64,000 bases of DNA from Pseudomonadota bacterium. Its GTDB lineage: Bacteria > Pseudomonadota > Gammaproteobacteria > Halothiobacillales > Halothiobacillaceae. Shown here one piece after another: positions 13,548 to 39,983 of this stretch (the stretch's first letter is position 1; every line of letters starts with the position of its first letter). Location: contig JBNJFM010000001.1 in the NCBI GenBank assembly GCA_051746865.1, positions 75,621 through 139,620 on the forward strand. Reading direction: 5' to 3'. The notes beneath the pieces are model-generated. The model had not been told where the DNA came from, did not search any database, and worked only from the letters and a program-made list of their open reading frames with translations. A program made the translations under genes and the position numbers.

Positions 13548-13573
13548 AGGACAATGACGCTCCGGGGGAGATC

Positions 13574-14509: not shown

Positions 14510-14521
14510 CAAAGCCGGGCT

Positions 14522-16020: not shown

Positions 16021-16034
16021 GGTTCGCTTGTCCT

Positions 16035-16382: not shown

Positions 16383-16507
16383 GGCGCAATCCCTGTGTTT
16401 ACGGTTCATATACTTCTAGCCTACGACAACTGTCCGCTCCGAACCGGAGATGTTAGCTTGATAGCCACCTATCGGGTGGTACGGGAAACATAATACCGGG
16501 AGGTCTG

Positions 16508-17404
16508 ATGAACGAACTGCAAGCCCACCGCCGCCAGGGCCTGATCCTGATGGCCGTGGCCGTGTTGACCATCCCGGTCGCCGACACGGCCGCCAAGTGG
16601 CTGTCGACCACCCTGTCGGTGGGCGAGATCGCCTGGTTCCGCTTCGTCTTCCAGACACTCTTCCTGCTGCCCATTCTCGCGGCCCAGCGATACATCGGTC
16701 GTCCGACGCGCGATCACCTGTGGCTCGGCGCGCTGATCGCCGGCGCGATCCTCTTCCTGTTCTGGGGACTGGCCCATCTGCCCCTGGCGAACAATATTGC
16801 GCTGTTCTTCGTCGAGCCGCTGATCCTGGTGATCTTCTCGGCGGTGTTCCTCGGCGAGCGCATCACGGCCCGGCGCTGGATCGGCGTGCTCGGCGGTCTT
16901 GTCGGCGCGATGGTGATCCTGCGCCCCAACTGGAGCGCCTACGGGCTGGCCTCGTTGTTCCCGCTGGCCTCGGCCACCTGCTTTGCAGCCTACCTGACCG
17001 TCACCCGTGCGCGCATTCGCACGCCCAGGCCCCGCGACGCCCTCGCCCTGCAATGCTGGGTGGGCGTGGCCGCCGCCATCGTGATGGGCGTGTTCCTGGT
17101 CGTCGGCGGCGCGGGCGACTGGCCCATTGCCGAGTGGCACCGACCCACGGGCTGGAACTGGGCCTGGCTGGCCGCCGCCGGCGGACTGGCGGCCTTCGCC
17201 CACGTCCTGATCGCCATGGCCTTCGCCCGGGCCGATGCCAGCCTGCTCGCCCCGCTCCAGTACCTGGAGATCTTCGGCGCGACGCTGCTCGGCTGGCTGG
17301 TGTTCGGGGACTGGCCCGACGCGCTCACCATCCTCGGCGGGCTGATCATCATCGCGGCCGGCATCGTGGTCGTCCGCGAGAAACCGGTCGACACGCACCC
17401 CTGA
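16508..17404 (+). CDS. DMT-superfamily (EamA-like) transporter
   Basis: 298 aa with about 10 TM helices in two EamA-like halves. RBS GGGAGG lies before the ATG. Confidence 0.8.
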   Translation: MNELQAHRRQGLILMAVAVLTIPVADTAAKWLSTTLSVGEIAWFRFVFQTLFLLPILAAQRYIGRPTRDHLWLGALIAGAILFLFWGLAHLPLANNIALFFVEPLILVIFSAVFLGERITARRWIGVLGGLVGAMVILRPNWSAYGLASLFPLASATCFAAYLTVTRARIRTPRPRDALALQCWVGVAAAIVMGVFLVVGGAGDWPIAEWHRPTGWNWAWLAAAGGLAAFAHVLIAMAFARADASLLAPLQYLEIFGATLLGWLVFGDWPDALTILGGLIIIAAGIVVVREKPVDTHP

Positions 17405-24605: not shown

Positions 24606-25730
24606 ATGGATGCCATCAACGAGATTTCTCCGGGCTTTCTGACCGGCCACTGGGTATGGATCACCCAGGTCTTCCTCATCATCACGGTTTCCCTGTTGCT
24701 AAACTTCTCGCAGGGGCGCTTTCTGCGATGGTTGCACCGGCGGATGCGGGAGAAGGAAAACCGCTGGGCGGACTCGGTCGTCGACGCCCTCGCCCGGCCG
24801 CTGACACTGCTGATCTGGGTACTGGGCACCACGCTGGCCGCCGACGTGATCTTCCACGCCGCCCAGACGACCCTCTTCGAGTACGCCGGCGAGGCCCGCC
24901 GCGTGGGCGTAATCCTGTCCGTCGCTTGGTTCCTCACCCGCCTGATCCGCAACGGCGAGGAGACGATCCTGCAGACGGCTCGCGTCCGACCGGTGGAAGA
25001 ACAGCGCATCGACCAGCACACCGCCGAGGCGATCGGCAAGCTGTTGCGCGTGTCGGTGTTTGTCACCGCCACGCTGGTGATCCTGCAGACGCTGGGCTTC
25101 TCCATCTCCGGCGTGCTGGCCTTCGGTGGCCTGGGCGGCATCGTCATCGGCTGGGCGGCGCGGGATTTCGTCTCCAACTTCTTCGGCGGGCTGACCATCT
25201 ATCTCGATCGTCCCTTCCACGTGGGCGACTGGGTGCGCTCGCCCGACCGCGAGATCGAGGGCACCGTCGAGGAGATCGGCTGGCGCCAGACCCGCATCCG
25301 CAAGTTCGACAAGCGCCCCATCTACGTGCCCAACTCCACCTTCACCACCATCGCGCTGGAGAACCCCTCGCGGATGACGCATCGCCGCATCTACGAAAAC
25401 GTCGGCATCCGATACGCCGACATCGACGCCATGGAGGCGATCACTCGCGACGTGGAGGCGATGCTGTGGGAGCATCCGGACATCGCCGAGGATCAGACCA
25501 TGATCGTGAATTTCAATGCCTTCTCGGCCTCGTCGATCGACTTCATGCTCTACACCTTCACGAAGACCGTGAACTGGATCGAGTACCACCGCGTCAAGCA
25601 CGACGTGCTGCTCAAGGTCGCCGAGATCATCGCCTCGCACGGTGCCGAGATCGCCTACCCTACCCGCACGCTGCACATCGAGAACGATTCGGCCGGGACG
25701 GAGCCGATCACCCTGCCGGCCGATCGGTAG
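24606..25730 (+). CDS. MscS-family mechanosensitive channel
   Basis: TM helices followed by FRVGDWV-type beta domain (PFHVGDWVRSPDREIEGTVEEIGWRQTRIRKFDKRPIYVPNS). Confidence 0.8.
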   Translation: MDAINEISPGFLTGHWVWITQVFLIITVSLLLNFSQGRFLRWLHRRMREKENRWADSVVDALARPLTLLIWVLGTTLAADVIFHAAQTTLFEYAGEARRVGVILSVAWFLTRLIRNGEETILQTARVRPVEEQRIDQHTAEAIGKLLRVSVFVTATLVILQTLGFSISGVLAFGGLGGIVIGWAARDFVSNFFGGLTIYLDRPFHVGDWVRSPDREIEGTVEEIGWRQTRIRKFDKRPIYVPNSTFTTIALENPSRMTHRRIYENVGIRYADIDAMEAITRDVEAMLWEHPDIAEDQTMIVNFNAFSASSIDFMLYTFTKTVNWIEYHRVKHDVLLKVAEIIASHGAEIAYPTRTLHIENDSAGTEPITLPADR

Positions 25731-25806
25731 CCCGGCGCTGCATCCGTTTCTCGCCGCGTGCTAGGCTCTCGCGTCCGTCGCGTATTGCGGCGTTCCCCAC
25801 TTCACG

Positions 25807-26718
25807 ATGGAGAACACGATGACCTCCCGTCCGCACGTCGATCGCACACTGATTGCCCTGCTGGTCACCGCTCTGGTGGCCGCCATGTCCGTGGGCACCG
25901 CCGAGGCCAAGCGCTTTGGTGGCGGCAAGAGCTTCGGCTTCCAGGGCCAGAAAAGCTCGCAGACCACCAGTCAGCGCCAGTCCGCCACCGATCAGAAGGC
26001 CACCCGCAGCCCGGGCGCCGGCATGGGTGGCATGCTCGCCGGCCTGGCAGCCGGCGGCCTGCTGGCCTGGCTGTTCATGGGCGGCGCGTTCGAGGGCATC
26101 CAGCCGATGGACCTGCTGGTGCTGGTCCTGCTTGGCGTGGGCGTGTTCCTGCTGATCCGTCACCTGCGTGGCGGCGGGCGTCGCCCTGCCCTGGCAGGCA
26201 TCCCGGGCCAGGGCGGCGCGGCGCGCGATAACAGCCAGCAGCGCGAATCGCTGTTCCCGCAAGGGGGCTCGGGCCATGGCGCGCCGCGGCCCGGCTCGGT
26301 CATGGCCGAGCTCGGCTTTTCCGGTCAGGCGTCGTACCAGCCGCCGTCGTGGTTCGACGAGGAACGCTTCCTCGGCGCGGCCCGTACCCACTTCACCAAC
26401 CTGCAACTGGCTTGGGACGCCAATCGCATGGACGAGGTGCGCGAGTTCGTCACGCCGGATCTGTTCCGTGAACTGGTACGCGAGCGGGCGGCCATCGGGG
26501 ATGCCGAGAATGTCACCGAGGTGCTCGGCCTCGATGCCACGCTCGAAGACCTCGGCGAGGAAGACGGCGACATCGTCGCCTCCGTGCGCTTTGTCGGCCG
26601 GGTACGCGAGCAGGCCGGCAGCAAACCGACAGCGCTGGACGAGACCTGGCTGGTGCGTCGCAATCTTGCCGACGGGAACGCCAACTGGCTGATCGCCGGG
26701 ATCCGTCAGAACGGCTAA
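25807..26718 (+). CDS. Tim44-like domain membrane protein
   Basis: Signal/TM segment, Gly-rich linker, second TM, and a C-terminal Tim44-like domain (FLGAARTHFTNLQLAWD...WLIAGIRQ). An alternative ATG at 25819 lies behind GGAG. Confidence 0.7.
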   Translation: MENTMTSRPHVDRTLIALLVTALVAAMSVGTAEAKRFGGGKSFGFQGQKSSQTTSQRQSATDQKATRSPGAGMGGMLAGLAAGGLLAWLFMGGAFEGIQPMDLLVLVLLGVGVFLLIRHLRGGGRRPALAGIPGQGGAARDNSQQRESLFPQGGSGHGAPRPGSVMAELGFSGQASYQPPSWFDEERFLGAARTHFTNLQLAWDANRMDEVREFVTPDLFRELVRERAAIGDAENVTEVLGLDATLEDLGEEDGDIVASVRFVGRVREQAGSKPTALDETWLVRRNLADGNANWLIAGIRQNG

Positions 26719-26746
26719 CGGAAGCCGGAACCGACCGGGAAAAGAC

Positions 26747-26782
26747 GAACCCCGCGGATCCATCGATTCGCGGGGTTTATTC
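26747..26782 (+). terminator. Rho-independent terminator after the Tim44-like gene
   Basis: GAACCCCGCG-N12-CGCGGGGTT followed by TATT. Confidence 0.6.
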
Positions 26783-26969
26783 CATCTCCGGGCGGGGATG
26801 ACATGTCCGATGACGACCGGGAAAGGCCCGCAGGAACCACATGCCACTGACGGTCTGGCGGGTCGTTCGTGACAAGGGCCGAGGAATCATCCTTCCGCTG
26901 CGCACGCCCGCCTTGCATCTGCCCGGCTGACGGCGAGCCTGAGCGGTGGGCGGATTCGTGCAGGCCTTT

Positions 26970-27308
26970 TCAGGCAAAGAACGATTCCTGCGCCAGCGCT
27001 TTCATCACCTCGGTCAGGTTCGCCTGGGCATTGTCGACCACCGCCACCATGCTCGACACCCCGCATACCGTGCGCTGATCGCCATGGACGATCCAGCCGT
27101 TGGCCGGGGTCCAGCCCGGCTCGTTGACGAACATCGCCAGCTGATCGGCGTGCCCCTGGGTCATGCGTTTGAAATCCAGCGCCAGGCGGGTCAGCCGACG
27201 GGCGTCGGTGTCCGAAAGCTCGCCGTGTACCTGCCACGGCTCACCGGACTCCTCGCGAAAATGGGCGACGGCCTGCACGCCCCTGATATCGAGCAGTTGC
27301 TTGAGCAT
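26970..27308 (-). CDS. DUF2173-like small protein (Roadblock/LC7-like pattern), paralog a
   Basis: 112 aa. RBS GAGGAGG. Shares the pattern GV.A...F...G....G.L...........A.....M.......GF.P..GW...G....C.......V.DN with the two upstream paralogs. Confidence 0.7.
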   Translation of the reverse strand: MLKQLLDIRGVQAVAHFREESGEPWQVHGELSDTDARRLTRLALDFKRMTQGHADQLAMFVNEPGWTPANGWIVHGDQRTVCGVSSMVAVVDNAQANLTEVMKALAQESFFA

Positions 27309-27318
27309 GACATCCTCC

Positions 27319-27657
27319 TCACCCCGCCAGGGCCTCGTAGGCGGCGTCGAAATCGGCCTTGTCGTTGGACAGCACCACGCCCTGGCGGCCACGGGAAACC
27401 GCCGACCAATCCAGCCCAACGAAGGTGAATCCCTCCACGGGATAGAAGCCCTTGACGTCGCTCATGCTTTCCCAGCCACGCGCCTGCATGGCGCCGATGG
27501 CCGTGTTTGCCACACACAAGTGGCCGAGCAGATCGAGCGTATCCCGATCGATCACCACGTCGTCGGTGATCACCGCGTCCTCGAGTCGCCCTTGGTCATC
27601 GAACTGGAAGGCCGCGACGGCACCGGGCATCGAACTGAGTGTCTTGAGATCGGACAT
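27319..27657 (-). CDS. DUF2173-like small protein, paralog b
   Basis: 112 aa from the ATG at 27657, with AGGAGGA 6 nt upstream. Paralogous to the neighbouring genes. Confidence 0.7.
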   Translation of the reverse strand: MSDLKTLSSMPGAVAAFQFDDQGRLEDAVITDDVVIDRDTLDLLGHLCVANTAIGAMQARGWESMSDVKGFYPVEGFTFVGLDWSAVSRGRQGVVLSNDKADFDAAYEALAG

Positions 27658-27695
27658 GGTCATTCCTCCTCTGTGGGACGGATCGCCCGCAGGTG

Positions 27696-28076
27696 TCAAC
27701 TCAGAGCATCAGGCGCGTCGGCCAGACGTTCGCGCATCAGCCCCAGCACCTTCGTCAGCGAGGCCCGTTCATTGTCGAGCACGCAGTAGACGTTGGAGAT
27801 CACGCAGACACTGCGTGACGCGCCGTGCATCACCCACCCCTTGGTGGGCTCGAAACCACAACCACCTGCACCTGGTTGGCAGACACGAGAGAACAGCGCC
27901 AGCATGTCACCCTCCATCCGCATCGCGGCCGCATTCGCCCGACAGACAGACGAGATAAGCCGGGTTTCCGCTTCGGACAGATCGCCCTTGTGGTGGTAGT
28001 ACTGGTCACCCCGGTAGGCGAAGTCGCCCGCCGCCACGACCCCGGGCTGGCCCATCAGTTCGGATACGACACTCAT
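27696..28076 (-). CDS. DUF2173-like small protein, paralog c
   Basis: 126 aa and more Cys-rich (CRAN, CQPGAGGCGF, VCVISNVYC). Paralogous to a and b. Confidence 0.7.
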   Translation of the reverse strand: MSVVSELMGQPGVVAAGDFAYRGDQYYHHKGDLSEAETRLISSVCRANAAAMRMEGDMLALFSRVCQPGAGGCGFEPTKGWVMHGASRSVCVISNVYCVLDNERASLTKVLGLMRERLADAPDALS

Positions 28077-28192: not shown

Positions 28193-30241
28193 TCACACCA
28201 GGTCCCGGGGTATCCGCCGGTTCCAGTTCTCCGAGAACACCCGCGTGTCGCCCTCCCAGGCGTCCAGTTCGGCCCGCAGGAGGAAATGCGTCGGCGTGGA
28301 ACTCAGGTACGTTGCGGTCCGGATAGTGGCCCGCCAGTCGCCGCGTGAGAACTCCTTGCGTGTCGCGGTCTCGCCGGAGACCGACTCGAATTCTCCTCCC
28401 TGGCTGCGGTACCACTCGTTGGTCACCGAGCCGATGGTCAGGTCGAGTTCGTCGATCCGCCAGCGTCCGTCGTCCTTGATCACCTCGAGCTCGGAGGCGT
28501 CCGCCGCCAGATCCCGATGCACCAGCCAGTTGTGGTGCTCCGGCTCGATCAGTGTCTTTTGCATCGCCGGTGTGCCCTCGGGAGGACCGAATTCGCACAG
28601 GCGTTCGTCATCGAGCGTGTCGCGCCGGCAGGGAAGAACCAGCCTGCTCTCGGTGGGCACCACGGCCAGTTCCACCGGCTCCGGGGGCGGCCAGGCCAAC
28701 GGCCAGTACGAGGTGCTGATAGCCAGACGGATCCGGTGTCCGGCGGGAAACGATTGCGCCACGTAGTTCATGGGTACGCTTGCCGTGTACCTCCCGCCGA
28801 CCTCCAGTGCCTCGGGTGACTCGTCGCCATCGCGATGCGTCAGGTTCAGCAGGCCATAGGCGATCCGTGTCGCACTGCCGTCCGGAAGCACGTCCTCCAG
28901 CCGCACGCAGACCTGGGCGACGGGCCGGTCCGCCGACAGCGTGAGTTCCACCCGCGGTGCCCCGAGAATATTCATGGACTCGGCCAGAGGCTCGGAGGTG
29001 TAGAGCAGCGCCCCACCGTCTTCTTCCCGCTGGTCGTGGGGGAGATCGGGAGCCGAGGCATAGGAGCACCACTTCCCGGCAAACAGCCCGACACTCAGGG
29101 GCGATTGCATGCGATCCACGGTCGGCTCGACATCGGCCCGGCGCTCATCGGGCATCAGGAGGCGATACCGCGCCATGGCAAGCGCGCGCTCACGGACATT
29201 GGCGGAAGGCCAGGTGTCCTCGACCACCCATCTCCCCGGACGGACCTTGTACTGGGTGGACGGCGGCACGCTGTCCTGCATCCAAGCCCGCAGCAGAGGA
29301 TCCTTCTCCACGCCGTTGTCCTTTCCCTTGAGCCAGTGATCGAACCAGCGCAACACGTGCTGCAGGAAACCGATTGCCGGGCCCGGCTCCCCCATGTGTG
29401 GGTACTTGTGGCCCCAGGGACCCACCAACCCCTGCCGGGGGACATCGAGGTGCTCGAGCAGGCGAAAGACCGCGTTGGTGTAGCCGTCGGTCCAGCCACT
29501 GACCGCCATGACCGGGCAACGGATGGCCGAGTAGTCCTCGCAGACGGACGCCCGCTTCCAGAATTCGTCCCGGTGCTGGTGTCGCAGCCAGATATCCAGC
29601 CATACCCCGCTTTCGGCCAGACGGCGCAACCACATCTCCCGCCAGTCGTCTCCAACGATGGCCGGGTCGGGAGGGCAACTGGTATGGCCGAACATTGTGG
29701 TCGACTCGGAGAGGTTGTCCGCGAGGAGACAGCCGCCCATGTAGTGCATGTTGTCGGCGTACAGGTCGTCGGTGGCACAGGCGGCCACGATGGCCTTGAG
29801 GGCCGGCGGCTGTCGAGCGGCGATCTGCAAGGCGTTGAAGCCGCCCCAGGAAATGCCAAACATGCCGACGTTGCCATCGCACCAGGTTTGGGCGGACGCC
29901 CAGGCAATCGCCGCGACACCGTCGTCCTGCTCCTGGTCGAGATACTGGTCGCGCAGCACGCCGTCCGAGTCCCCGCTCCCTCGCAGGTCCACCCGCAGGC
30001 AAGCGTACCCATGTCCAGCGAGATAGGGATGATTGATCTCGTCGCGTTCGCGCGTGATGTCGCGCTTTCGGTACGGAATGTACTCGATCAGCGCGGGGAC
30101 CGGGGCATCGTCGGCATCTTCGGGCAACCACAGGCGCGCCGCCAGGCGGTCGCCGTCAGGCAGCGGAATCCAGATGTTCTCGATGTGACGCACGGCACAA
30201 GGCAGCTGGTCGGGGTCGACGTGGTGCAAAGGAGCTGTCAT
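28193..30241 (-). CDS. CocE/NonD-family (peptidase S15, X-Pro dipeptidyl-peptidase-like) alpha/beta hydrolase, copy 1
   Basis: Starts at MTAPLHHVD... (ATG 30241), which aligns with the N-terminus of the paralog at 35349..37373. Nucleophile elbow GISWGG, DLRGSGDSDG, C-terminal beta-sandwich. It occupies the 3' two-thirds of the artefactual 1119-aa ORF. Confidence 0.85.
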   Translation of the reverse strand: MTAPLHHVDPDQLPCAVRHIENIWIPLPDGDRLAARLWLPEDADDAPVPALIEYIPYRKRDITRERDEINHPYLAGHGYACLRVDLRGSGDSDGVLRDQYLDQEQDDGVAAIAWASAQTWCDGNVGMFGISWGGFNALQIAARQPPALKAIVAACATDDLYADNMHYMGGCLLADNLSESTTMFGHTSCPPDPAIVGDDWREMWLRRLAESGVWLDIWLRHQHRDEFWKRASVCEDYSAIRCPVMAVSGWTDGYTNAVFRLLEHLDVPRQGLVGPWGHKYPHMGEPGPAIGFLQHVLRWFDHWLKGKDNGVEKDPLLRAWMQDSVPPSTQYKVRPGRWVVEDTWPSANVRERALAMARYRLLMPDERRADVEPTVDRMQSPLSVGLFAGKWCSYASAPDLPHDQREEDGGALLYTSEPLAESMNILGAPRVELTLSADRPVAQVCVRLEDVLPDGSATRIAYGLLNLTHRDGDESPEALEVGGRYTASVPMNYVAQSFPAGHRIRLAISTSYWPLAWPPPEPVELAVVPTESRLVLPCRRDTLDDERLCEFGPPEGTPAMQKTLIEPEHHNWLVHRDLAADASELEVIKDDGRWRIDELDLTIGSVTNEWYRSQGGEFESVSGETATRKEFSRGDWRATIRTATYLSSTPTHFLLRAELDAWEGDTRVFSENWNRRIPRDLV

Positions 30242-31552
30242 CAGTCGTGACCTCCCTGCTCTCGTTGGTGGGAAACGGGTTCGAAGCGGAACGGCAGCAG
30301 CCGTTTGGCCTGCTCGAACTTGCGATTGAGATCGGACACGTCGTCGCCACCGATGACCAACTCGGCCAGCACCCAGCTGTAGGCATCCTGGTCGACCGTC
30401 TCGCCCAGACGCATACCCTGGTGGATCTTGATCTCGACATGGGTGTCCGGCTGGCATTCGGCCAATCGCGCGAGGTCCGCCTCGTCGGGCGCCGACAGAC
30501 AGAGCGCATCGCTGACATCGAAACGGCGATAGAGATACTTGGCCGCCATATCGTAGGGGCCGCCCCCATGTTCGAAGGCCGGCTCGTCGTCCAGCGCCAC
30601 GTGAATGGCCACCTCGTAGTTCGACATGCCGTCGACCATCGCCATCATCGCGCTGTGGGACTGGGAAAGGCGGGCGTTGAACTCGATCAGCTGCAGCTCG
30701 TCCGTGTCCCGCGACATTGAAGCAGCCGTCGTCGTATCCGATGGCCTGGACGAACCGCTCGACCGCCTTCCCGGCCCGCTCCTGGACCCGGCGGGGATGG
30801 ATCGAGGGATAGCGGTAATCCTTGAAGCTCTTGTGGTTCGGGGCGCGCACCATGTCGATCACACCGTGGACGGCGACCTTGCCGTTGCGGACCGAGCCTT
30901 CCGGCGCGAACTCCACGCCTCCCATCAGCGCCTCGGCGATCATGTGATTGCCGCCCACGCCACCCAAATCCGAGGTATCGACACGCTCGAGCACGGCATT
31001 GAACGGCTTGCCGAACCGGGGAAGCCGCTCGCGCGCGAATCCGATGGCCTCGTGGAAATCGCGCTCGTCGTTGATGCGAAAGCCGAGGGTCGAGGAATAG
31101 CCACATACCGGCTTGATCCAGAAAGGAAAATCGATGCTGACCTCGCTGAGCGGATCGTCCGAGAAGGGATCCACCGCGCAGAACGGGGGCGTGAATTCGG
31201 GCAGGACACGTCGCTGTTCCAGGCGCCCCCAGTACTTGTGGGCACAGCGAAGCACGGCATTCAGGGATGGCGAGGGAAGTCCGAAGCGCTCGCAGAGAAT
31301 GGCGCCGACCGCCGTGACCGGGAAGTCCCAGTAGCCGATGATCGCGTCGATCGGCCCGTCGAACGCATCCAGGACAGCCTGAGCCTTGTCGATCATGACA
31401 TCCACGTCACGATCGACACTCACCTCCTCGCGCTCCAGCAGACCGTGAAAGCGGAACCGTTCCCGGTCGGGAATCATCTCGAGGTCGCGAAGATGCACCG
31501 CGTCCAGCCCGATGACGAAGACATTGCGACGTCGGCCGGCTCCGCCGGTCAT
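30241..31552 (-). pseudogene. ATP-grasp ligase, copy 1, interrupted by a +1 frameshift near 30708..30710
   Basis: The N-terminal ~280 aa are in the frame of ORF 28193..31552 (MTGGAGRRRNVFVIGLD...GYDDGCFNV). The C-terminal ~155 aa are in ORF 30241..30717 (..DTDELQLIEFNARLSQSHS...). Both halves align with the intact paralog at 37370..38683. The length is 1312 nt, which is not a multiple of 3. Confidence 0.7.
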
Positions 31553-31593
31553 GACGCCACGCCAACGGCCGGATGATTGAACCGAGCATCCAT
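31549..31593 (-). CDS. 14-codon upstream ORF (MDARFNHPAVGVAS) coupled to ATP-grasp copy 1
   Basis: Strong SD AAGGGAGG lies 7 nt before the ATG at 31593. Its TGA overlaps the ATP-grasp ATG (ATGA). The ATP-grasp gene itself lacks a good SD. Confidence 0.25.
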   Translation of the reverse strand: MDARFNHPAVGVAS

Positions 31594-31678
31594 CCCGAAA
31601 CCTCCCTTTCGACTGCTCACTCCATAGAGTAGGCCGGGGAGCGTCGGGGTGCAGAAACGCCCCGGTCGGCCGGATGGG

Positions 31679-32404
31679 TCAGCGAGCCTGGAGGCAGTCG
31701 ATCAGCCGTCGCGCATCGGCCGGTGCTTGGGCCTCGGCATCGTTGTCGAAGTAGCCGTAGACCGACTTCCCCTCGCGCTGCCAGGCGTCGATGGCGCTGG
31801 CCCATTCGTCCAGGGCGGCATGATCGTACCGGCCTCGATACGCTCCATCCGCCCCGTGCCAGCGCAGGTAGACGAAATCCGCCGTGGTCGTGAGCGGCGT
31901 CGTCCGGCGGTCGAGATCGAAGATGCAGAACGCGGCCCCGTGCTCGCGCAGAAGATCGGCCACCTCGTCGGTCCACCAGCTCTCGTCACGGAATTCGAAC
32001 ACGTAGCGGTAACCGGCCGGCAGGGCCTTCAGGAATCCGGCTAGCCGGTCGGGATCGGCGTGCCAGCGCGGCGGGAGCTGGAACAGCACTGGCCCGAGCC
32101 GGTCAGCCAGTCGGTCGATAGCCTCGAAGAACCGCCCGGCGCTCCGGTCGGGGTCCTTGAGCTTCTTCATGTGGGTAATGTAGCGACTGGCCTTGACCGC
32201 GAAGCGGAACGATTCCGGCACGGCATCCCGCCAGGCCTCCAGGGTGCCCTCCCCGGGCAGCCGGTAGAAGGTCGCGTTGATTTCCACGGTGGAGAAGCGC
32301 TCGGCGTAGTACGCCAGCCACTGGCTCGCGGGGAGCCCGTGCGGATAGAAGGCCTCCTTCCAGTGCGGGTAGTTCCAGCCCGATGTGCCGATCCGTACCG
32401 TCAT
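31679..32404 (-). CDS. DUF72 family protein
   Basis: MTVRIGTSGWNYPHWKEAFYP...YAERFSTVEINATFYRLP...FAVKASRYITH is the classic DUF72 signature. Confidence 0.85.
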   Translation of the reverse strand: MTVRIGTSGWNYPHWKEAFYPHGLPASQWLAYYAERFSTVEINATFYRLPGEGTLEAWRDAVPESFRFAVKASRYITHMKKLKDPDRSAGRFFEAIDRLADRLGPVLFQLPPRWHADPDRLAGFLKALPAGYRYVFEFRDESWWTDEVADLLREHGAAFCIFDLDRRTTPLTTTADFVYLRWHGADGAYRGRYDHAALDEWASAIDAWQREGKSVYGYFDNDAEAQAPADARRLIDCLQAR

Positions 32405-32557
32405 GATCTCTCCTCCGTCCCCGGTCGTGCCGAACCGCCTCCCGGGTTCGTCCCGATCTCACCGGAGACTAGCCCATGACCCGCGGCCTCCCTCTTGAAA
32501 CGGGCGGCCGGCAACCCTAATTCCCGATCCCCCGGCATCACGATGGAGGGTTCCCGA

Positions 32558-33130
32558 ATGAGCCGCATTCACCTGCGCCGTAGCCGACGCCAATCGGACC
32601 TGCGTCGCTACTGGGGCGTGATGAGCGTCTCGGAGCGCTTCGAGCAGATCATCGCGTCGATCCTCGGCGTCGTCATCGCCGGGGTGATCGTGCTGGCGCT
32701 GTGGGAACTCCTGCGGCTGGTCGCCGAGACACTGTTGCTGCAACACCGGAACGTGCTGGATCACCGGGTGTTCCAGAACCTGTTCGGCGCGATTCTCACC
32801 CTGCTGATCGCGATGGAATTCCAGCATTCGATCATCAAGGTCATTGAAAGGCGCGAACACATCATTCAGACCAAGATCGTGGTGCTGATCGCCCTGCTTG
32901 CCCTGGCACGGAAGTTCATCATCCTCGATACCGGGACCACCTCGCCGATGATGATCCTGTCGCTCTCCGTCGGCGTGCTGGTGCTCGGCCTCGTCTATTG
33001 GCTGATCGAACAGCGCGATGCCGTCGCCCGTGACGACGTAGCGCCGGCCCTACCCGAGGAGAAAGCGGGTTCCCGCCCATCACCCGCATCGGACACACCA
33101 CTGGAAGACAGGACGAATCCGGGACGCTGA
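32558..33130 (+). CDS. psiE: PsiE-like (phosphate-starvation-inducible E family) membrane protein
   Basis: Four TM helices with LLIAMEF...IVVLIALLALARKFIILD, typical of the PsiE family. The ATG at 32558 follows GGAGGG. Confidence 0.6.
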   Translation: MSRIHLRRSRRQSDLRRYWGVMSVSERFEQIIASILGVVIAGVIVLALWELLRLVAETLLLQHRNVLDHRVFQNLFGAILTLLIAMEFQHSIIKVIERREHIIQTKIVVLIALLALARKFIILDTGTTSPMMILSLSVGVLVLGLVYWLIEQRDAVARDDVAPALPEEKAGSRPSPASDTPLEDRTNPGR

Positions 33131-33133
33131 CCG

Positions 33134-34522
33134 TCAGCCCTCCGGGCTCCGGCCCGTGTGACCGCCGAAATATTGCCGAGTCATGCGAAGTACCAGCGGT
33201 GACAGCAGCAGGATCGCGATCAGGTTGGGGATCGCGAGCAGCCCGTTGGCAATGTCGCAAAGCGCCCAGATCAGCTCGAGGTTCATGATCGCCCCGAAGG
33301 GCAGCAGCAGGCTGAAAAGTCGCCGGTAATGCCGGATCGAACCACTGCCAAGAAGGTACTCGGTTCCCTTCTCCCCGTAATAGCTCCAGCCGATGACGCT
33401 GGAAATGGAAAAGAAGAGCAGTGTCACGGTCACCGCGAGCTTGCCTAGATCGGGCACGGCCGCGTTGAAGGCCATGGTGGTAAGCTCCGAGCCGCTCTTG
33501 CCCGTTTCCCAGACACCGGTCGTCAGGATGACCAGCGCGGTCAGCGTGCAGACGATCAGGGTGTCGAACAGCGGCGAGTTCATCGCCACCAGGCCCGCCT
33601 TGGCCGGATGATCCCCCCGGCTGGCGGCCAGAGCGATCGGCGTGGTTCCCAGTCCGGCCTCGTTACTGAATATGCCACGGGCTACGCCGAACTGGATCAC
33701 CGCCATCACGCTGGCCCCGGCGAATCCGCCCACGGCCGCCGTTCCGGTGAAGGCATCGTGCACGATGGTGAGCAGTGCCGCAGGAATGGCGGAAGCGTTT
33801 ATGCCGAGCACGATCAGCGCGCTGCCCACATAGATCAGGAACATCGCCGGCACCAGCCGGGCGACCACGTGGCCGATCCGCCGAATGCCGCCCACGATCA
33901 CCAGCCAGATCATCGCCGCATAAGCCACGCCGATCAGAAACTTCACTCCGAGGATGTACGTCGGATCGGGCGCGTATCCCGCCAGGTCCCGCAGGGAGAA
34001 TTCCAGTGTGTCGGCTACCGAATTGGCCTCGACCATGTTGCCGGTCCCCAGCGTGGCAACCACTAGGCATGCGGCGAAGAACTGCGCCATCGGTTTCCAG
34101 CGAGGCCCCAAGCCCTGCTCGATGTAGTACATGGGACCGCCGGCGTATTCCCCCGTCTCATTGCGAAACACGCGGTACTGCAGCGACAGCACCGTGGATG
34201 CGTAGACGGTGGCCATGCCGACTATGGCGGTGAGCCACATCCAGAGAATGGCCCCTGGCCCGCCCATCGCTATGGCAGTGGCGACCCCGGCGATATTGCC
34301 GTTGCCGATCGCCGCGGACAACGCCACGGTCAGCGAGCGGAAATAGCTGAGATCACCCTCGGTCTCTGCACCGCGCTGGCCGAGCAGCCGCAGCGACATC
34401 GAGAGTCTGAAGACCTGGATCAGCCGCAGCCGAATGGTGAAATAGACGCCGGTGCCAACCAGCAACACGATGGTGATCGGCCCCCAGACGAAGGCATTCA
34501 CGGCGTGTACGGCTTCCTGCAT
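33134..34522 (-). CDS. alanine/glycine:cation symporter (AGCS) family transporter, copy 2
   Basis: [41 protein letters not shown]. Paralog of 19769..21148. Confidence 0.9.
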
Positions 34523-34665
34523 GGTTCTCGGTCCTTTCCTGGGCAGATGCTGGTGAAACTAACAACTCGAGACGGTATCCGGCGACGACCGCCCCGCCAC
34601 CCGGCAGGCCGCCACTCGTTGGTCTACCCTTTTTGCCGATTCCTTCAGTTCGGCAGAGGTTCGAC

Positions 34666-35265
34666 ATGAGCAAGATTCTCGTCCTTTACTACTCCATGTA
34701 CGGCCATATCGAGACCATGGCGAGTGCCGTCGCCGCCGGCGCCCGGGAAGTGGACGGCGCCGAGGTCACGGTCAAGCGTGTGCCGGAGCTGATGGACGAG
34801 GAAACGGCGAAAAAGGCCGGGGCCAAGCTCGAGCAGAGCGCCCCCGTCGCCAACCCGAAGGAACTGGCCGACTACGATGCCGTCATCCTCGGCACGCCCA
34901 CCCGCTTCGGCAACATGGCCGCGCAGATGCGCAACTTCCTCGACCAGACCGGTAGCCTCTGGGCCGAGGGCAAGCTGATCGGAAAGGTTGGCAGCGTATT
35001 CACCTCCACCGGCACCGGGGCGGGCAACGAGACCACCATCACGTCGACCTGGAATACCCTGGCACACCTGGGAATGGTGATCGTGGGGACGCCCTACGGC
35101 ATCCCCGAGATGTTCGACATCTCCGAGCCGCGCGGCGGCGGCCCCTACGGTGCCGGGACGTTGGCCGGTGGCGACGGCAGCCGCCAGCCCAGCCAAAGAG
35201 AGCTGACCATCGCCCGCTACCAGGGGCAGCACGTCGCCGGGATCACGATGAAACTGCACGGCTGA
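34666..35265 (+). CDS. wrbA: NAD(P)H:quinone oxidoreductase WrbA (flavodoxin-like)
   Basis: [19 protein letters not shown]...[21 protein letters not shown]...GAGTLAG. Confidence 0.9.
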
Positions 35266-35276
35266 CACGCGCGCCT

Positions 35277-35295
35277 CCCCGGGCATCTCCCGGGG
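35277..35295. terminator. GC hairpin between convergent wrbA and hydrolase copy 2
   Basis: CCCCGGG-catct-CCCGGGG. No T-run. Confidence 0.3.
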
Positions 35296-35348
35296 CCCCC
35301 TGTTCCCCGCCCGGCATTCCGCCTCCGGAGCAGGCAGCCGTGATGGCA

Positions 35349-37373
35349 TCACACCAGGTCGCGGGGGATCTCCACGTCCCAGTTGTCCGAGTGGACCCGC
35401 TTGTCCCCTTCCCAGGCGTCGAGTTCGGCATGGATGACGAAGTGGGTCTTCGTCGCGGTCAGCCGGGTACGGGTCACGGTCCGCACCGACCAGTCGCCGC
35501 GCCGGTAGCCCCGTTCCCACAGCGTCTCGCCCCTGGGAGAGAGGTAGTCGTAGCCGCGGTAGCTGTACCACTCCAGCGCCTTGCGCTGCATTTCGAGGTC
35601 CGCCGGGCCGATATCGATGGTCCCGTCGTCGTTGATCACCTCCAGCGTGGTCTCGTCGGTCTCGAGGTCGCGGGTGACCAGCCACTTGTGACGGCCTGAC
35701 TCGACCGTCTCGGTGGGCGTGGGCCGGGCTCCCTCGGCCGGCGGAAAGTCGATCCGGGCGTCTTCCTCGTCCCGACGCGGGCGCTCGGGCAGCAGAAGCC
35801 GGCTGCTGCCGGTGAAGATCGTCAGGCGGGCCGGCTCCGGCGCGGGCCAAGCCAGGGGCCAGTAGGAAGTCGAAATCGACAGCCGCAGCCGGTGCCCGGC
35901 AGGGAACACGTGGGCGATGTGATTGAGCCTGACCGTCACCCGGTAGCGCTCGCCGGGCACCACGGGCTCGGGTGTCTCCGAGCCGTGGCGGTGGGTGAGG
36001 TTGAGCAGGCCGTAGGTCACGCGCGTGGCCTTGTCATCCGGCGCGACGTCCGAGAGCCGCACGGCCACCATGGCGACGGGCCGGTCGGAGGAGACGGCCA
36101 GTTCGAGCGCCGGGGCCCCGAGGATCTCCATCGGCTGGTCGAGACGACGCGTGTCGAACACCAGGGCACCGCCGTCCTCCTCGCGCTGGTCGTGCGGCAG
36201 GTCCGGCGTGGCGGCATACGAGCACCACTTCCCGGCGAACATGCCCACCGACAGCGGTGACTGGATGGACATGATCTTCTCTTCCACCGGGCCCTCGTCC
36301 GGTTCGAGCGTGCCGGGCCAGCCCAGCACGAACGGCGCTTTCCGGATGCCGGGCGATGGCCAGCTTTCCTCGCCGACCCAGCGCCCCTCACGCCGCTGGT
36401 AGAAGGTCGTCGGCGGCGCCGATTCCTGCATCCAGACACGCAGCATCGGCTCGTCCATGATGTCGGTCTCGATGTCCTTGAGCCATTTATCCCACCAGCG
36501 CAGGCATTCCTGGAGAAAGCCGATCGCCGGGCCGGGCACACCCTGGTGTGGGTACTTGTGACTCCAGGGGCCCACAAGCCCCAGCCTTGGCACCCGCAGG
36601 TTCTCCATCAGCCGGAAGACCGAGTTGGTGTAGCCGTCGGTCCAGCCGGAGACGGCCATGACGGGACAACGGATCGCGTCCCAGTCCTCGCAGACCGAGC
36701 CGTGCTGCCAGTACTCGTCGCGCCGCTGGTGCGTCAGCCACTTCTCCAGCCACAGGCCGCTGCCGTGCAGGCGCTCGAACCACATCTCGCGCCAGCGGTC
36801 GCCGACGATCGCCGGGTCGGGCGGCAGCGAGTTGAAGGCGAACATGGTCGAGGCCCACGAGAGATTATCCCCCAGCAGGCAGCCGCCCATGTGGTGCACG
36901 TCGTCGGCATAGCGATCGTCGGTCGAGGCGACGGTCACCACCGCCTGGAGCTCCGGCGGGCGCATGGCGGCGATCTGCAGGCCGTTGAACCCACCCCAGG
37001 AGATGCCGATCATGCCGACGCGACCGCTGCACCAGGGCTGCGCGGCGAGCCAGCGGATGATCTCCACGCCATCGTCGAGCTCCTGCTGCAGGTACTCGTC
37101 CTCGAGCACCCCTTCCGAATCGCCGCTGCCGCGGAGGTCCACGCGGACACAGGCGTAGCCGTGCGCGGCGAAATACGGATGCATCACGTCGTCACGCATG
37201 CGGGTGTTGTCCCGCCGGCGGTAGGGGATGTACTCGAGGATCGCCGGCACGGGCGCATTCTCGGCATCCTCGGGCATCCAGATCCGGGCGGCCAGCCGGG
37301 TGCCGTCGCTCATCGGGATCCAGACGTGCTCGATCTCGCGGACTGGCTGCGGAAGAGGATCGATGATTCTCAC
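35349..37373 (-). CDS. CocE/NonD-family (peptidase S15-like) alpha/beta hydrolase, copy 2
   Basis: 674 aa. The GTG start overlaps the ATP-grasp stop (GTGA). GISWGG nucleophile elbow. Roughly two-thirds identical by eye to copy 1 along the whole length. Confidence 0.85.
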   Translation of the reverse strand: MRIIDPLPQPVREIEHVWIPMSDGTRLAARIWMPEDAENAPVPAILEYIPYRRRDNTRMRDDVMHPYFAAHGYACVRVDLRGSGDSEGVLEDEYLQQELDDGVEIIRWLAAQPWCSGRVGMIGISWGGFNGLQIAAMRPPELQAVVTVASTDDRYADDVHHMGGCLLGDNLSWASTMFAFNSLPPDPAIVGDRWREMWFERLHGSGLWLEKWLTHQRRDEYWQHGSVCEDWDAIRCPVMAVSGWTDGYTNSVFRLMENLRVPRLGLVGPWSHKYPHQGVPGPAIGFLQECLRWWDKWLKDIETDIMDEPMLRVWMQESAPPTTFYQRREGRWVGEESWPSPGIRKAPFVLGWPGTLEPDEGPVEEKIMSIQSPLSVGMFAGKWCSYAATPDLPHDQREEDGGALVFDTRRLDQPMEILGAPALELAVSSDRPVAMVAVRLSDVAPDDKATRVTYGLLNLTHRHGSETPEPVVPGERYRVTVRLNHIAHVFPAGHRLRLSISTSYWPLAWPAPEPARLTIFTGSSRLLLPERPRRDEEDARIDFPPAEGARPTPTETVESGRHKWLVTRDLETDETTLEVINDDGTIDIGPADLEMQRKALEWYSYRGYDYLSPRGETLWERGYRRGDWSVRTVTRTRLTATKTHFVIHAELDAWEGDKRVHSDNWDVEIPRDLV

Positions 37374-38683
37374 GGCGCCTCCTTCGGTGCCCTTGCTCCG
37401 ATATCGTGGAATTCCAGCGGCAATCGTTCCAGCAGTTCGTCGTAACGGGCCATCAGGTGCTCATGCGACGGCCCACCCATGAAGATTGCCGCCACCTCGT
37501 AGCTGTAGACCTCCTGGCCGGGCATCTCGGACAGCCGCATGCCCTCCTCGACCTCGATCTGGATGCGGGTGCCGGGAAACTCGTGCTCCAGCGAGCGGAT
37601 CTCGCCGTCGGTGGGCACCCGGGTGACGACCGCATCCTCGAAATGCCGGAGCATGAACTTGATTGCCACTTGGTGAGGCCCTTCCCGGCGGGGAAAGGAC
37701 GGCTTGCGCCCCAGGGCGAGATCGATGGCCACTTCGTGGTGGGAGGCGCCGGCCACGTCCATGAACAGCGGCGAGTGCGACTGCGAGATCCGGGTGTTGA
37801 CCTCCAGCAGCCAGATGCGGTCGTGCTCCTGGTCCCAGAAGTACTCGATATTGAACGGCGTGTCGTCGAGTTCCATGGCCGGCACGGCCCGCCGAGTGAT
37901 CTCGATCATCCGCTCCTGGATCGACTCGGGCAGTTGCGAGGGAAACTCGTAGCGGGCGAACGACGAACCGATGCCGCCTTCGCGTACCGAATCGACCACC
38001 CCGTAGACGACAGTCTCCCCGTGGCGCACATAGCCCTCGAGGGTGCACTGCCAGCCGCCGATGGGCTTTTCCAGCGTGCAGTGGAAGGCATCGACGTCGA
38101 TGGGGATGTCCGAGGGAAGCGTGGCCCGTGCCACGAACCGATCGAACGGTGAGCCGAACAGCGGCAGGCCCGCCCGCAGGCCGGCCAGCGCGGCGTCCAG
38201 ATCGTCCCGGTTCTCGACGTAGTAGACCATCTGCGAGGAAAAGCCGATGTTGGGCTTGATCCAGAAGGGATAGGTCAACTCGAGCCGAGAAGCGGCGTCC
38301 GGATCGAAAGGATCGAGGCTCTGGAACCCGGGGATGTTCTCCGGAATGGCCAGCCCCTGCCGCAATCGCGACCAGTACTTGTGCTCCGCGATCAGGATGC
38401 TCTCCAGACTGGGCCCGGGCAGGCCCAGCGCGTCTCGGAACACCACGCGCAGCGCCGGGGTGGGAAAGTCCCAGTGCCCGATCACCGCATCCGGCCGCAC
38501 CCCGGAATCCCGGATCTCGTCCATCCCCAGTTCGATCATCTCGTCGATGGGATAACTGTCCGGATGGACCACCATCTCGTAGGGAAGCAGCCCGTGGAAC
38601 ACGTAATACTCGGCATGCCGAATGCTCTCGATCTGTTCCCTGTGAAAATCATCCAGACCGATGACAAATACGTGTTTCGCCAT
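37370..38683 (-). CDS. ATP-grasp ligase, copy 2 (intact)
   Basis: 437 aa. RBS GAGGAGGG. Pre-ATP-grasp N-domain and an ATP-grasp core ending in PFNIEYFWD...WLLEVNTRISQSHS. Confidence 0.8.
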   Translation of the reverse strand: MAKHVFVIGLDDFHREQIESIRHAEYYVFHGLLPYEMVVHPDSYPIDEMIELGMDEIRDSGVRPDAVIGHWDFPTPALRVVFRDALGLPGPSLESILIAEHKYWSRLRQGLAIPENIPGFQSLDPFDPDAASRLELTYPFWIKPNIGFSSQMVYYVENRDDLDAALAGLRAGLPLFGSPFDRFVARATLPSDIPIDVDAFHCTLEKPIGGWQCTLEGYVRHGETVVYGVVDSVREGGIGSSFARYEFPSQLPESIQERMIEITRRAVPAMELDDTPFNIEYFWDQEHDRIWLLEVNTRISQSHSPLFMDVAGASHHEVAIDLALGRKPSFPRREGPHQVAIKFMLRHFEDAVVTRVPTDGEIRSLEHEFPGTRIQIEVEEGMRLSEMPGQEVYSYEVAAIFMGGPSHEHLMARYDELLERLPLEFHDIGARAPKEAP

Positions 38684-38867
38684 GTCGAACCCTCCTCAGA
38701 GGGGGCAGGTTGCAATGGATGCCCCTGTATGAGGGTAGATGCTCGGCGACCGGTTTGAGACCCGGAATCAATCGGAACCGATCCGGGCTTGCCGCCCGAG
38801 GACCGCCGGCACTAGGATCAAAAGGGATGCCGGACCCGGCAAGCGGGCCAGAACGGGGGATACGACA

Positions 38868-39983
38868 GTGGACAAGGAAACGGATCTGACCCTGCTGCTC
38901 ATCGGCGACGTGATGACCGGACGGGGCGTCGACCAGGTCCAGCCGCAGCCCTCCGACCCGGCGCTATACGAATCATGGATACTCGACGCCCGGGGCTACG
39001 TGCGCCTGGCGGAACGGGCCAACGGTCCGGTTCCGCGGGACGTGCCGGCCGACTACATCTGGGGCGACGCCCTGACCGCCATCGCCGATTCCCGGCCGGA
39101 CCGGCGGATCCTCAACCTGGAGACGGCAGTCACCACCGCCGACACCCCCTGGCCGAACAAGGGCATCAATTACCGCATGCACCCGGCGAACCTGGCCTGC
39201 CTGAAGGCCCTCGCGCCGGATTGTTGCGTGCTGGCCAACAACCACGTACTCGACTGGGGACGGGAGGGACTGGACGAGACGCTCGACACGCTCGGGAACG
39301 CCGGCATCCCCACGGCCGGTGCCGGCCGGGACATCGACCGGGCATCGAGCCCGGCGACCCTGCCCCGCCCCGACGGCGGGCGGTTGCTCGTCTTCGCCGT
39401 GGGGCTGCCCGACAGCGGGATACCCGCCGACTGGGCCGCCGGACCGGGACTGGCCGGGGTGAACTGGTTGCCGGATTGCGGCCCGGACAGTGTCGCCCGC
39501 CTCGCGGAACACATCCACACGGTTCGCCGTCCCGGCGACCAGGTGCTGCTGTCGATTCACTGGGGCGGGAACTGGGGCTGGGAGATTCCCGAGGCGCATC
39601 GCACCTTCGCCCACGCCCTGATCGACCGGGGGGTGGTCGACCTGATCCACGGACACTCCTCGCATCACCCGAAAGCGATGGAAGTCCATCGCGGACGCCT
39701 GATCCTCTACGGTTGCGGGGACTTCATCAACGACTACGAGGGCATCGGCGGCCACGACCCCTTTCGGGGCGAGCTCTCGCTCGCCTGGTTGCCGACGCTG
39801 CGGGACGGCCGGCTCACCGCCCTGCGCATGCTGCCGTTTCGCATGCGCCGGTTCCGCCTGAATCACCCGTCGGAAGAGGAAATCGACTGGCTGAGCGACA
39901 CCCTGAACCGAGAAGCCGGTCGCTTCGGGGCCGCTGTGCGCCGGCACGATAGCGTGCTGGAACTCGACTGGGCCGGCGACTGA
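38868..39983 (+). CDS. CapA/PGA_cap-family (metallophosphatase-fold) protein, cytoplasmic
   Basis: LLLIGDVMTGRGVD, NLETAVT, LANNHVLDWG and AGAG motifs of the CapA family. The proposed GTG start at 38868 follows GGGGGA. The upstream part of ORF 38739.. looks non-coding. No signal peptide. Confidence 0.7.
   Translation: MDKETDLTLLLIGDVMTGRGVDQVQPQPSDPALYESWILDARGYVRLAERANGPVPRDVPADYIWGDALTAIADSRPDRRILNLETAVTTADTPWPNKGINYRMHPANLACLKALAPDCCVLANNHVLDWGREGLDETLDTLGNAGIPTAGAGRDIDRASSPATLPRPDGGRLLVFAVGLPDSGIPADWAAGPGLAGVNWLPDCGPDSVARLAEHIHTVRRPGDQVLLSIHWGGNWGWEIPEAHRTFAHALIDRGVVDLIHGHSSHHPKAMEVHRGRLILYGCGDFINDYEGIGGHDPFRGELSLAWLPTLRDGRLTALRMLPFRMRRFRLNHPSEEEIDWLSDTLNREAGRFGAAVRRHDSVLELDWAGD

Follow-up and report, generated by a model that had tools for sequence, protein, structure and literature searches.

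Couples of a ligase and a hydrolase set the levels of small amides and polymers, such as glutathionylspermidine, cyanophycin and carnosine. In Escherichia coli Gss, which is a fusion protein, and in cphA/cphB, which are operonic, an amide synthetase that depends on ATP and has a domain of the ATP-grasp type is combined with a hydrolase of the same bond. The closest characterised analogue, in architecture, of the gene pair considered here is the hmrA/ldmS operon of Staphylococcus aureus, which encodes the M20D carboxypeptidase HmrA and the L-Asp-L-Met ligase LdmS, and whose physiological purpose is open, its authors calling the activity a 'paradox' (PMC9486568). We analysed a stretch of 64,000 nucleotides (nt) from a bacterium of the Halothiobacillaceae (contig JBNJFM010000001.1; here, the window), in which an earlier note made from the sequence alone had described two modules, both on the (-) strand and each consisting of a gene for an ATP-grasp ligase followed by a gene for a CocE/NonD (S15) hydrolase. 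Both modules are present at the positions given in that note (Table 1; copy 1 with ligase 1 and hydrolase 1, copy 2 with ligase 2 and hydrolase 2), and the conservation of the pairing is strong and reaches well beyond close relatives.

The genome search for adjacent homologues that the earlier note had proposed was run with both genes. With the ligase as seed and one genome per GTDB species, at least 589 stretches encoding ligase relatives were detected among 185,579 species genomes, and the best 80 loci were kept. In a separate search of protein cluster representatives, 374 ligase representatives scored at E<=1e-30. Enough downstream sequence for an assessment was available at 78 of the best 80 loci. 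The hydrolase gene lies directly downstream on the same strand at 64 of these 78, with a median estimated gap of about 9 nt, and farther downstream at three, where one gene lies between in two cases and a 413-nt gap in the third (L079). The carriers of the pair belong to the Gamma-, Beta- and Alphaproteobacteria, Desulfobacterota, Campylobacterales, Acidimicrobiales and Gemmatimonadota. Moreover, Streptomyces rimosus has an annotated pair of an 'ATP-grasp domain-containing protein' (37% ligase identity) and a 'CocE/NonD family hydrolase'; in this species, a small metallophosphoesterase gene follows the hydrolase gene.

With the hydrolase as seed, 69 loci on metagenome contigs were assessable, and a ligase gene was present within 3.5 kb at 43 of them. 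The ligase preceded the hydrolase at 32 loci, the hydrolase preceded the ligase at three and preceded two ligases at one, the genes were divergent at two, and one locus had the order hydrolase-ligase-hydrolase; two further arrangements included an M20 gene as well. The order hydrolase-ligase-hydrolase is seen at L114:21-5516. Plasmids and megaplasmids carry only distant homologues. Mean pairwise identity was 66.5% for the hydrolases and 51% for the ligases. Over 44 loci, the identity matrices of the two proteins were correlated (r=0.88), and 0 of 999 permutations gave a value as high; part of this correlation could come from common descent alone. In both searches, and in several phyla, the adjacency thus extends beyond close relatives.

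The pair also occurs in a single polypeptide. In the representative search, we found a fusion of 1115 amino acids (aa) with the ligase at residues 1-411, a short acidic linker and a complete hydrolase, and at least ten clusters (90% identity, 978-1118 aa) consist of proteins that have ATP-grasp_4, Peptidase_S15 and PepX_C on a single chain, with the ligase first in all fusions. These clusters are 47-73% identical to the query fusion (P0279), which argues that the fusion is old and maintained. One fusion is present on 4 contigs as a stand-alone gene (the places shown are from ENA and JGI). Ligase-ligase fusions of 881-882 aa were also found, and these are followed by the hydrolase in every place examined (also at L075). 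Both halves of the double ligases retain the catalytic residues, and in the C-terminal half SQSH is replaced by A.HH and K342 by Ala, which suggests that this half may perform a second, different ligation. Finally, an ArgE/DapE-type M20 deacylase (TIGR01910, 243.9 bits, cut-off 217.6) is encoded at four loci: its gene separates those of the ligase and the hydrolase at L022, follows the hydrolase gene at L138, adjoins the ligase gene at L140 and takes the place of the hydrolase gene at L037.

Like hmrA/ldmS, the pair is a two-gene operon of an ATP-grasp L-amino-acid-ligase-type enzyme and a peptidase, and an M20-family deacylase accompanies the ligase at the four loci mentioned. However, the regular partner here is an S15 serine hydrolase, the M20 proteins are of the ArgE/DapE type and not M20D, the ligase gene comes first whereas the peptidase gene comes first in hmrA/ldmS, and the pair is spread over many phyla and includes fusions whereas hmrA/ldmS is found in few Firmicutes families. 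LdmS was found neither among the ligase sequence matches at E<=1 nor in the Foldseek top 50. Based on the S15 partner and the type of the M20 proteins, membership in hmrA/ldmS-type (M20D) operons was ruled out. The ligase-hydrolase fusions mirror the layout of Gss in principle, but the hydrolase parts of Gss (a CHAP amidase) and cph (an S51 peptidase) are non-homologous to the one here, the domain order differs, and nothing here points to polymer, glutathione or polyamine substrates. We conclude that the pair belongs to none of hmrA/ldmS, Gss and cphA/cphB, because its hydrolase is of a different family and its ligase is remote from known L-amino-acid ligases. To our knowledge, known L-amino-acid ligases are not paired with S15 hydrolases. 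In line with the earlier note, which knew of no characterised pathway combining the two families, we found no publication on this pairing in the literature searched; most subscription journals lie outside it, so a prior description is possible.

Ligase 2 matches PF13535 (ATP-grasp_4) with 43 bits (cut-off 27), and the N-terminal fragment of ligase 1 reaches 22.9 bits with the same model. The AF2 model of ligase 2 (pLDDT 92.5) has a predicted three-domain ATP-grasp fold. In Foldseek, this model gave 543 PDB matches at E<=0.001, and all 50 matches listed are ATP-grasp enzymes. The best match was BacD/YwfE (3VMM, 8.6e-23) by E-value and BL00235 (3VOT, 0.72-0.80) by TM-score; RizA (4WD3) was also among the matches, and biotin carboxylases scored almost as high (TM about 0.6). 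Similarly, BL00235 (3VOT) was the best solved relative of the ligase family profile (2e-9). BacD/YwfE, BL00235 and RizA, which are the best fold and sequence matches, have the E-x-N-x-R metal/phosphate motif in common with the ligase family; the latter differs from them by an identity of about 17% and by invariant motifs of its own, i.e. HWDFP, KYW.R and SQSH after E-x-N-x-R. K143, E280, E294, N296 and R298 are invariant across the family and present in ligase 2; we take them to be the ATP-/Mg-binding and catalytic set, consisting of the strand Lys, two acidic residues and an Asn, and the Arg of E-x-N-x-R.

The earlier note had also proposed to classify the ligase against known families. D-Ala-D-Ala ligase was ruled out (TIGR01205, 21.8 bits vs 245.65; PF07478, 18.7 vs 24), and so was the biotin carboxylase/carbamoyl-phosphate synthase type, the family models of which were missed by a wide margin: the carboxylase and carbamoyl-phosphate synthase NCBIfam models gave 15-28 bits with ligase 2, as compared to cut-offs of about 600-1300. 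Moreover, neither a biotin carboxyl carrier protein nor a carboxyltransferase partner was found among the conserved neighbours of the pair, and the position of the catalytic Glu296 of E. coli AccC presumably corresponds to Ser302 in ligase 2 ('EMNTRIQVEH' vs 'EVNTRISQSH'). No RimK- or graspetide-type Pfam match was obtained for the ligase. By profile and fold searches, the ligase thus lies outside the Ddl, carboxylase, RimK and CphA families. In databases, its homologues and those of its partner carry unspecific or incorrect names ('ATP-grasp domain-containing protein', 'D-alanine--D-alanine ligase', 'biotin carboxylase', 'CocE/NonD family hydrolase'). Altogether, the profile matches and the predicted model support that ligase 2 is an ATP-grasp amide ligase, the nearest solved relatives of which appear to be L-amino-acid ligases. 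In this high-GC DNA, long antisense open reading frames (ORFs) overlap the ligase genes.

Both hydrolases match Pfam Peptidase_S15 (PF02129) and PepX_C (PF08530) and pass TIGR00976 (CocE/NonD; 245.8 bits for hydrolase 2 and 236.6 bits for hydrolase 1, cut-off 66.3), while the PepX model NF003780 gave 104 bits vs a cut-off of 642 and therefore does not identify a Xaa-Pro dipeptidyl peptidase. In a profile alignment to CocE, S125 (in GISWGG), D246, H272 and Y51 correspond to CocE Ser117, Asp259, His287 and Tyr44. These four residues are invariant in a narrow hydrolase alignment as well as in a broad one that includes Streptomyces, Firmicutes, Myxococcota and one fusion protein. The predicted fold of hydrolase 2 is CocE-like (Foldseek 7.5e-38, TMt 0.73). 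By contrast, identity to CocE is 22-23%, and the hydrolase family has an extra all-beta C-terminal domain of about 130 aa (about residues 545-674 of hydrolase 2), which is absent from CocE, is kept family-wide and has R625 and R671 among its conserved residues. Mean column identity in the family is 61-73% across phyla, and overall similarity to the alpha-amino-acid ester hydrolase 1MPX has an E-value of 2e-19. By eye, neither enzyme of the pair has an N-terminus resembling a signal peptide. A redox-regulated Cys cluster was considered and rejected; four Cys are (near-)invariant in the narrow alignment, and only C115 is invariant in the broad one. These alignments identify the hydrolase as a serine hydrolase of the CocE/NonD type whose Ser-Asp-His triad is intact.

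The junctions TGATG in copy 1 and GTGA in copy 2, which the earlier note had read from the DNA, are both present. In copy 2, the GTG start of hydrolase 2 overlaps the stop of ligase 2 and is preceded by a Shine-Dalgarno-like AAGGAGG; in copy 1, the ATG of hydrolase 1 overlaps the stop of ligase 1 and follows a Shine-Dalgarno-like GGGAGG. By contrast, ligase 1 is not the intact gene that the note had assumed. Its interval of 1312 nt is no multiple of 3, and codons 1-280 and the last 156 codons are in different frames. On a metagenome contig from a close relative (L082), the ligase 1 orthologue is intact and encodes 441 aa. Over the aligned ligase-1 region (L082:8676-10001, 90.7% DNA identity), the sole length difference is that the window lacks 14 bp (AGTTTTACTGGGAT). 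The deletion drops 'EFYWD' and shifts the frame, and with it the family-invariant Glu (E280 in ligase-2 numbering) is lost from ligase 1. Because the deletion aligns the frame of the ligase-1 N-terminal part with that of hydrolase 1, a single ORF of 1119 aa is reported, which consists of the N-terminal 280 aa of ligase 1, 158 nonsense-free out-of-frame codons and then hydrolase 1 in frame. The homology search listed no 100% match to hydrolase 1, and gene callers may therefore have taken this chimeric ORF.

The contig L082 shares the layout of the window, i.e. CapA, ligase 2, hydrolase 2, WrbA, AgcS, PsiE, DUF72, ligase 1, hydrolase 1, MscS, Usp and Lon. Compared to L082, the ratio of nonsynonymous to synonymous substitution rates (dN/dS) is 0.23 for the N-terminal part and 0.12 for the C-terminal part of ligase 1, 0.25 for ligase 2, and 0.09 and 0.14 for hydrolase 1 and hydrolase 2, respectively. 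A long-decaying ligase-1 pseudogene was ruled out because dN/dS of both ligase-1 parts resembles that of intact ligase 2. Since dN/dS gives no sign of long decay, ligase 1 is probably a recent pseudogene, or else the lesion is an assembly error. The closest relatives of hydrolase 1 are 96% (L082), 81% (Guyparkeria sp. 1SP6A2) and 74% (Marinobacter sp. HL-58) identical to it, and each adjoins an intact ligase; the copy-1 ligase orthologues in the latter two genomes overlap or abut the hydrolase gene. On this reading of the DNA, the complete module in this genome is copy 2.

In Marinobacter sp. HL-58 (L084:1237-4903, 10146-16756), the copy-1-type pair lies among genes for alpha-amylase-family, DUF5752, TreT-like/GT4 glycosyltransferase, VTT-domain and phosphodiesterase proteins, with Crp-family regulators on both sides of the pair.

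The two hydrolases, in both of which GISWGG was confirmed in the translations, have 60% of their residues identical and 72% similar in an alignment of 672 aa (E=0), so that the 'two-thirds' identity estimated in the earlier note applies to their DNA (67.7%) and not to the proteins. The ligases are, as the note had stated, homologous and more diverged (about 36% identical). No additional copy of the module was found within the window. Hydrolase 2 is nearer to proteins from Microbulbifer (79%) and Thioalkalivibrio (72%) than to hydrolase 1 (60%), and hydrolase 1 has a nearer relative in Marinobacter (74%) than in hydrolase 2. Because each hydrolase is closer to proteins of other genera than to the other copy, the two copies are ancient paralogues or separate acquisitions and did not arise by a recent local duplication. 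The old duplication suggested previously thus stands as regards the age of the copies and the intactness of both hydrolases, while separate acquisitions are an alternative to duplication. In one other Guyparkeria genome, copy 2 is at a different location, and in another, copy 1 alone is present at this site.

The earlier note had also suggested that the directly repeated modules could mediate deletion or amplification of the island between them. RecA-dependent recombination depends on sequence identity between repeats. At 67.7% DNA identity, the hydrolase genes share no exact stretch longer than 24 nt, and the ligase genes cannot be aligned as DNA; therefore, repeat-mediated deletion or amplification of this island is unlikely, as far as the DNA comparison can tell.

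How do the two enzymes work together? The analysis shows a competent ATP-grasp amide ligase and a competent serine hydrolase, whose genes have stayed side by side despite reordering, lateral spread and fusion. We consider it probable that they form one unit acting on a shared small amide or peptide metabolite, in which the ligase makes and the hydrolase breaks the compound and the unit sets its pool. As part of the same explanation, which we favour on balance, copy 1 would have retained its hydrolase and lost its ligase function through the recent 14-bp deletion. The ligase would be cytoplasmic and, following the general ATP-grasp mechanism, would activate a carboxylate as an acyl-phosphate and then couple it to an amine. 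Its substrates are likely to be amino acids or similar small acids and amines, because the fold is L-amino-acid-ligase-like, there is no precursor or carrier gene, and a deacylase recurs as a partner. The hydrolase, with the triad Ser125-Asp246-His272 and Tyr51 at the oxyanion, would cleave, trim or hand on an acyl or aminoacyl bond of the ligase product and in this way set the level of the product, which would most likely be a di- or tripeptide-like, amino-acid-derived amide. In this respect, the unit would resemble glutathionylspermidine synthetase/amidase, cyanophycin synthetase/cyanophycinase and the staphylococcal hmrA/ldmS operon. The two proteins probably form a physical 1:1 complex. 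The earlier note had suggested an uncharacterised peptide or aminoacyl system in which synthesis and hydrolysis are linked; the conserved pairing, the fusions and the L-amino-acid ligases as apparent nearest relatives of the ligase make this a fair interpretation.

Several observations weigh against such a unit. The identity of ligase 2 to characterised L-amino-acid ligases is only about 17%, and that both enzymes act on one molecule is something we infer. At 11 of the 78 ligase loci, a lone ligase is followed by unrelated genes, and 26 of the 69 hydrolase loci have no ligase nearby; the unpaired hydrolases are more distant (median identity 54% vs 62% for the paired ones). Moreover, a synthetase co-expressed with a hydrolase of its own product gives a futile cycle if neither enzyme is regulated, and neither the Rfam scan nor the neighbour analysis revealed a regulator or regulatory feature for the pair. 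In the AF2 model of hydrolase 2, pLDDT is below 50 at residues 151-165, 245-247, 271-277 and 374-401, which are some of the most conserved loops and hold the loops of the catalytic Asp and His as well as the invariant 'PDLPHDQREEDGG' stretch. These values may result from the shallow alignment (18 sequences), or the loops may become ordered only with a partner or ligand. Finally, the ligase-1 deletion could be an assembly error.

The futile-cycle problem would be avoided in a two-step biosynthesis, in which the ligase makes an activated or intermediate amide and the S15 enzyme acts as an acyl- or aminoacyl-transferase, cyclase or trimmer to give the final product. Some S15 enzymes catalyse aminolysis, e.g. 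the alpha-amino-acid ester acyltransferases. The single-polypeptide fusions and the 1:1 coupled translation suit substrate channelling, and the higher conservation of the hydrolase relative to the ligase (66.5% vs 51%) also fits this scheme. However, the hydrolase is nearest to CocE, which is a plain hydrolase, and not to the ester hydrolases/acyltransferases, and at L037 it is replaced by a deacylase of the ArgE/DapE family, which is hydrolytic by family name. We regard a two-step biosynthesis as possible but not likely.

A second alternative, which we consider unlikely, takes up the osmolyte or storage compound that the earlier note had named as an example: the pair would synthesise it and break it down to adapt to salt. 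Most of the best 80 genome matches are from marine, saline or soda-lake bacteria (e.g. Halomonas, Thioalkalivibrio, Microbulbifer, Marinobacter, Halorhodospira, Nitrosomonas marina), but this list is biased to relatives of a halophile query. Similarly, genes for MscS and Usp lie near copy 1, OpuAC flanks the pair at 2 loci and the Marinobacter sp. HL-58 pair lies among glycosyltransferase and alpha-amylase genes, but neither an osmolyte transporter nor an osmoregulated element accompanies the pair in a conserved way. Streptomyces rimosus also carries the pair, and metagenome records named as soil by accession carry hydrolase homologues, mostly unpaired. We know of no compatible solute with a documented route via these two families.

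Quite unlikely, in our judgement, is the reverse order of action, in which the hydrolase would first act on an imported peptide or ester to release an acid or amino acid, which the ligase would then trap or re-route for salvage. In favour of this order, the first gene of hmrA/ldmS is that of the peptidase, for which a part in methionine recycling and acquisition has been speculated (PMC9486568), but the ligase gene of the present pair is first in most loci and in every fusion. AgcS is a neighbour of the pair in Guyparkeria relatives and follows it immediately in a metagenome-assembled genome of the Campylobacterales, but no transporter is conserved with the pair, and a catabolic route would gain nothing obvious by spending ATP on re-ligation.

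ATP-grasp enzymes include ligases that modify proteins and peptides. Thus, the ligase could in principle modify a protein or ribosomal peptide in a RimK-, TTL- or graspetide-like manner, with the hydrolase reversing or processing the modification. We consider this very improbable: no target gene or small ORF is conserved beside the pair, the Pfam search gave no match of the RimK or graspetide type, and the nearest folds are those of free-amino-acid ligases. In particular, no small ORF within 600 nt of the module was conserved across taxa as a precursor peptide would be, and a graspetide system, or other system for ribosomally synthesised and post-translationally modified peptides, was ruled out because a conserved adjacent precursor peptide gene is missing. 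Finally, that the adjacency is meaningless and the enzymes have unrelated roles is hardly credible, since, even though some ligases and many of the more distant hydrolases occur alone, the pairing spans phyla, survives gene-order shuffling and has given independent fusion proteins, and the two proteins diverge in a correlated way.

The make-and-break unit considered above consists of two genes. We looked for a third conserved gene near the pair by clustering 715 ORFs by homology and by scanning 111 flanking ORFs with Pfam, and found none; Aminotran_3, with a count of 7, is probably explained by synteny within Halomonas and relatives. No Rfam riboswitch or other RNA was found upstream of the ligase in the window or at 11 diverse loci, and a promoter and terminator scan gave counts at chance level. 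We conclude that the ligase-hydrolase pair is a self-contained unit with no other conserved neighbour, small ORF or riboswitch. A role in anti-phage defence was considered and rejected, as PADLOC gave no match for the ligase or the hydrolase.

The genes that the earlier note had listed around the modules (DUF72, PsiE, AgcS, WrbA, CapA and the DUF2173 trio) agree with the family assignments (Table 1). By contrast, its idea that the system is fed by the symporter has little basis, because AgcS lies near the pair only in Guyparkeria relatives and the one Campylobacterales metagenome-assembled genome; AgcS, WrbA, DUF72, PsiE and CapA are not conserved partners. CapA was ruled out as a partner since it adjoins the pair only in Guyparkeria relatives.

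Table 1. Positions in the window of the two modules, the lesion in ligase 1 and the neighbouring genes
Feature	Position	Strand	Description
Three tandem DUF2173 genes	26970..28076	(-)	Family assignment
Hydrolase 1 gene	28193..30241	(-)	Intact, 682 aa, CocE/NonD (S15) hydrolase
Chimeric 1119-aa ORF	28193..31552	(-)	From ORF listing and translation
Ligase 1 gene	30241..31552	(-)	Disrupted ATP-grasp ligase paralogue, 1312 nt, two frames
14-bp deletion site	30711..30712	(-)	AGTTTTACTGGGAT lost; TCG...TCG flanks in L082; from DNA alignment vs L082
Intervening block (DUF72, PsiE, AgcS, WrbA)	31679..35265	mixed	Outside the module, not conserved beside the pair elsewhere
DUF72 gene	31679..32404	(-)	Family assignment; context only
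PsiE gene	32495..33130	(+)	Family assignment; context only
AgcS gene	33134..34522	(-)	Family assignment; context only
WrbA gene	34633..35265	(+)	Family assignment; context only
Hydrolase 2 gene	35349..37373	(-)	Intact, 674 aa, CocE/NonD (S15) serine hydrolase
Ligase 2 gene	37370..38683	(-)	Intact, 437 aa, ATP-grasp amide ligase, L-amino-acid-ligase-like fold
CapA/PGA_cap gene	38739..39983	(+)	Divergent from ligase 2

Further observations concern the surroundings of the modules and of their relatives. Between the MscS/Usp genes and hydrolase 1 lies a block (25708-28076, (-)) made up of the three DUF2173 genes and a 379-aa ORF without a Pfam or NCBIfam match; L082 lacks this block at the corresponding place, which in Guyparkeria sp. 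1SP6A2 is occupied by other genes. The similarity of the CapA/PGA_cap protein to MslH, a Trp epimerase of lasso peptides, is partial and lies far below the cut-off (NF038314, 66.6 bits vs 700). A second AgcS-type Na+/alanine symporter paralogue is encoded at 19802-21121 (-) and is 51% identical to the AgcS between the modules. A 133-aa ORF (32459..32860, (-)) seems conserved by tblastn and was rejected as an antisense shadow of the PsiE gene. At L146:1-5161, three tandem S15 hydrolase paralogues occur without a ligase. In Photobacterium obscurum, a DABA-DC-AT RNA motif (RF02951, 83.8 bits; L021:10972-11136, (+)) lies about 1.6 kb downstream of the pair and is probably unrelated to it.

For this genome, the analysis means that at most one of the two modules is complete. 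More generally, the widespread pairing marks a piece of bacterial small-molecule metabolism that is open to direct test by means of the natural single-chain fusions and the double ligases. Tentatively, and with more doubt than conviction, we suggest that the pair, together with its fused and double-ligase forms, may make and regulate a small peptide-like metabolite that has yet to be described, with the S15 step serving in its turnover or maturation and the two copies serving two different products. If so, the pair would serve this metabolism in hundreds of species, ranging from Proteobacteria of the sea and of soda lakes to Streptomyces.

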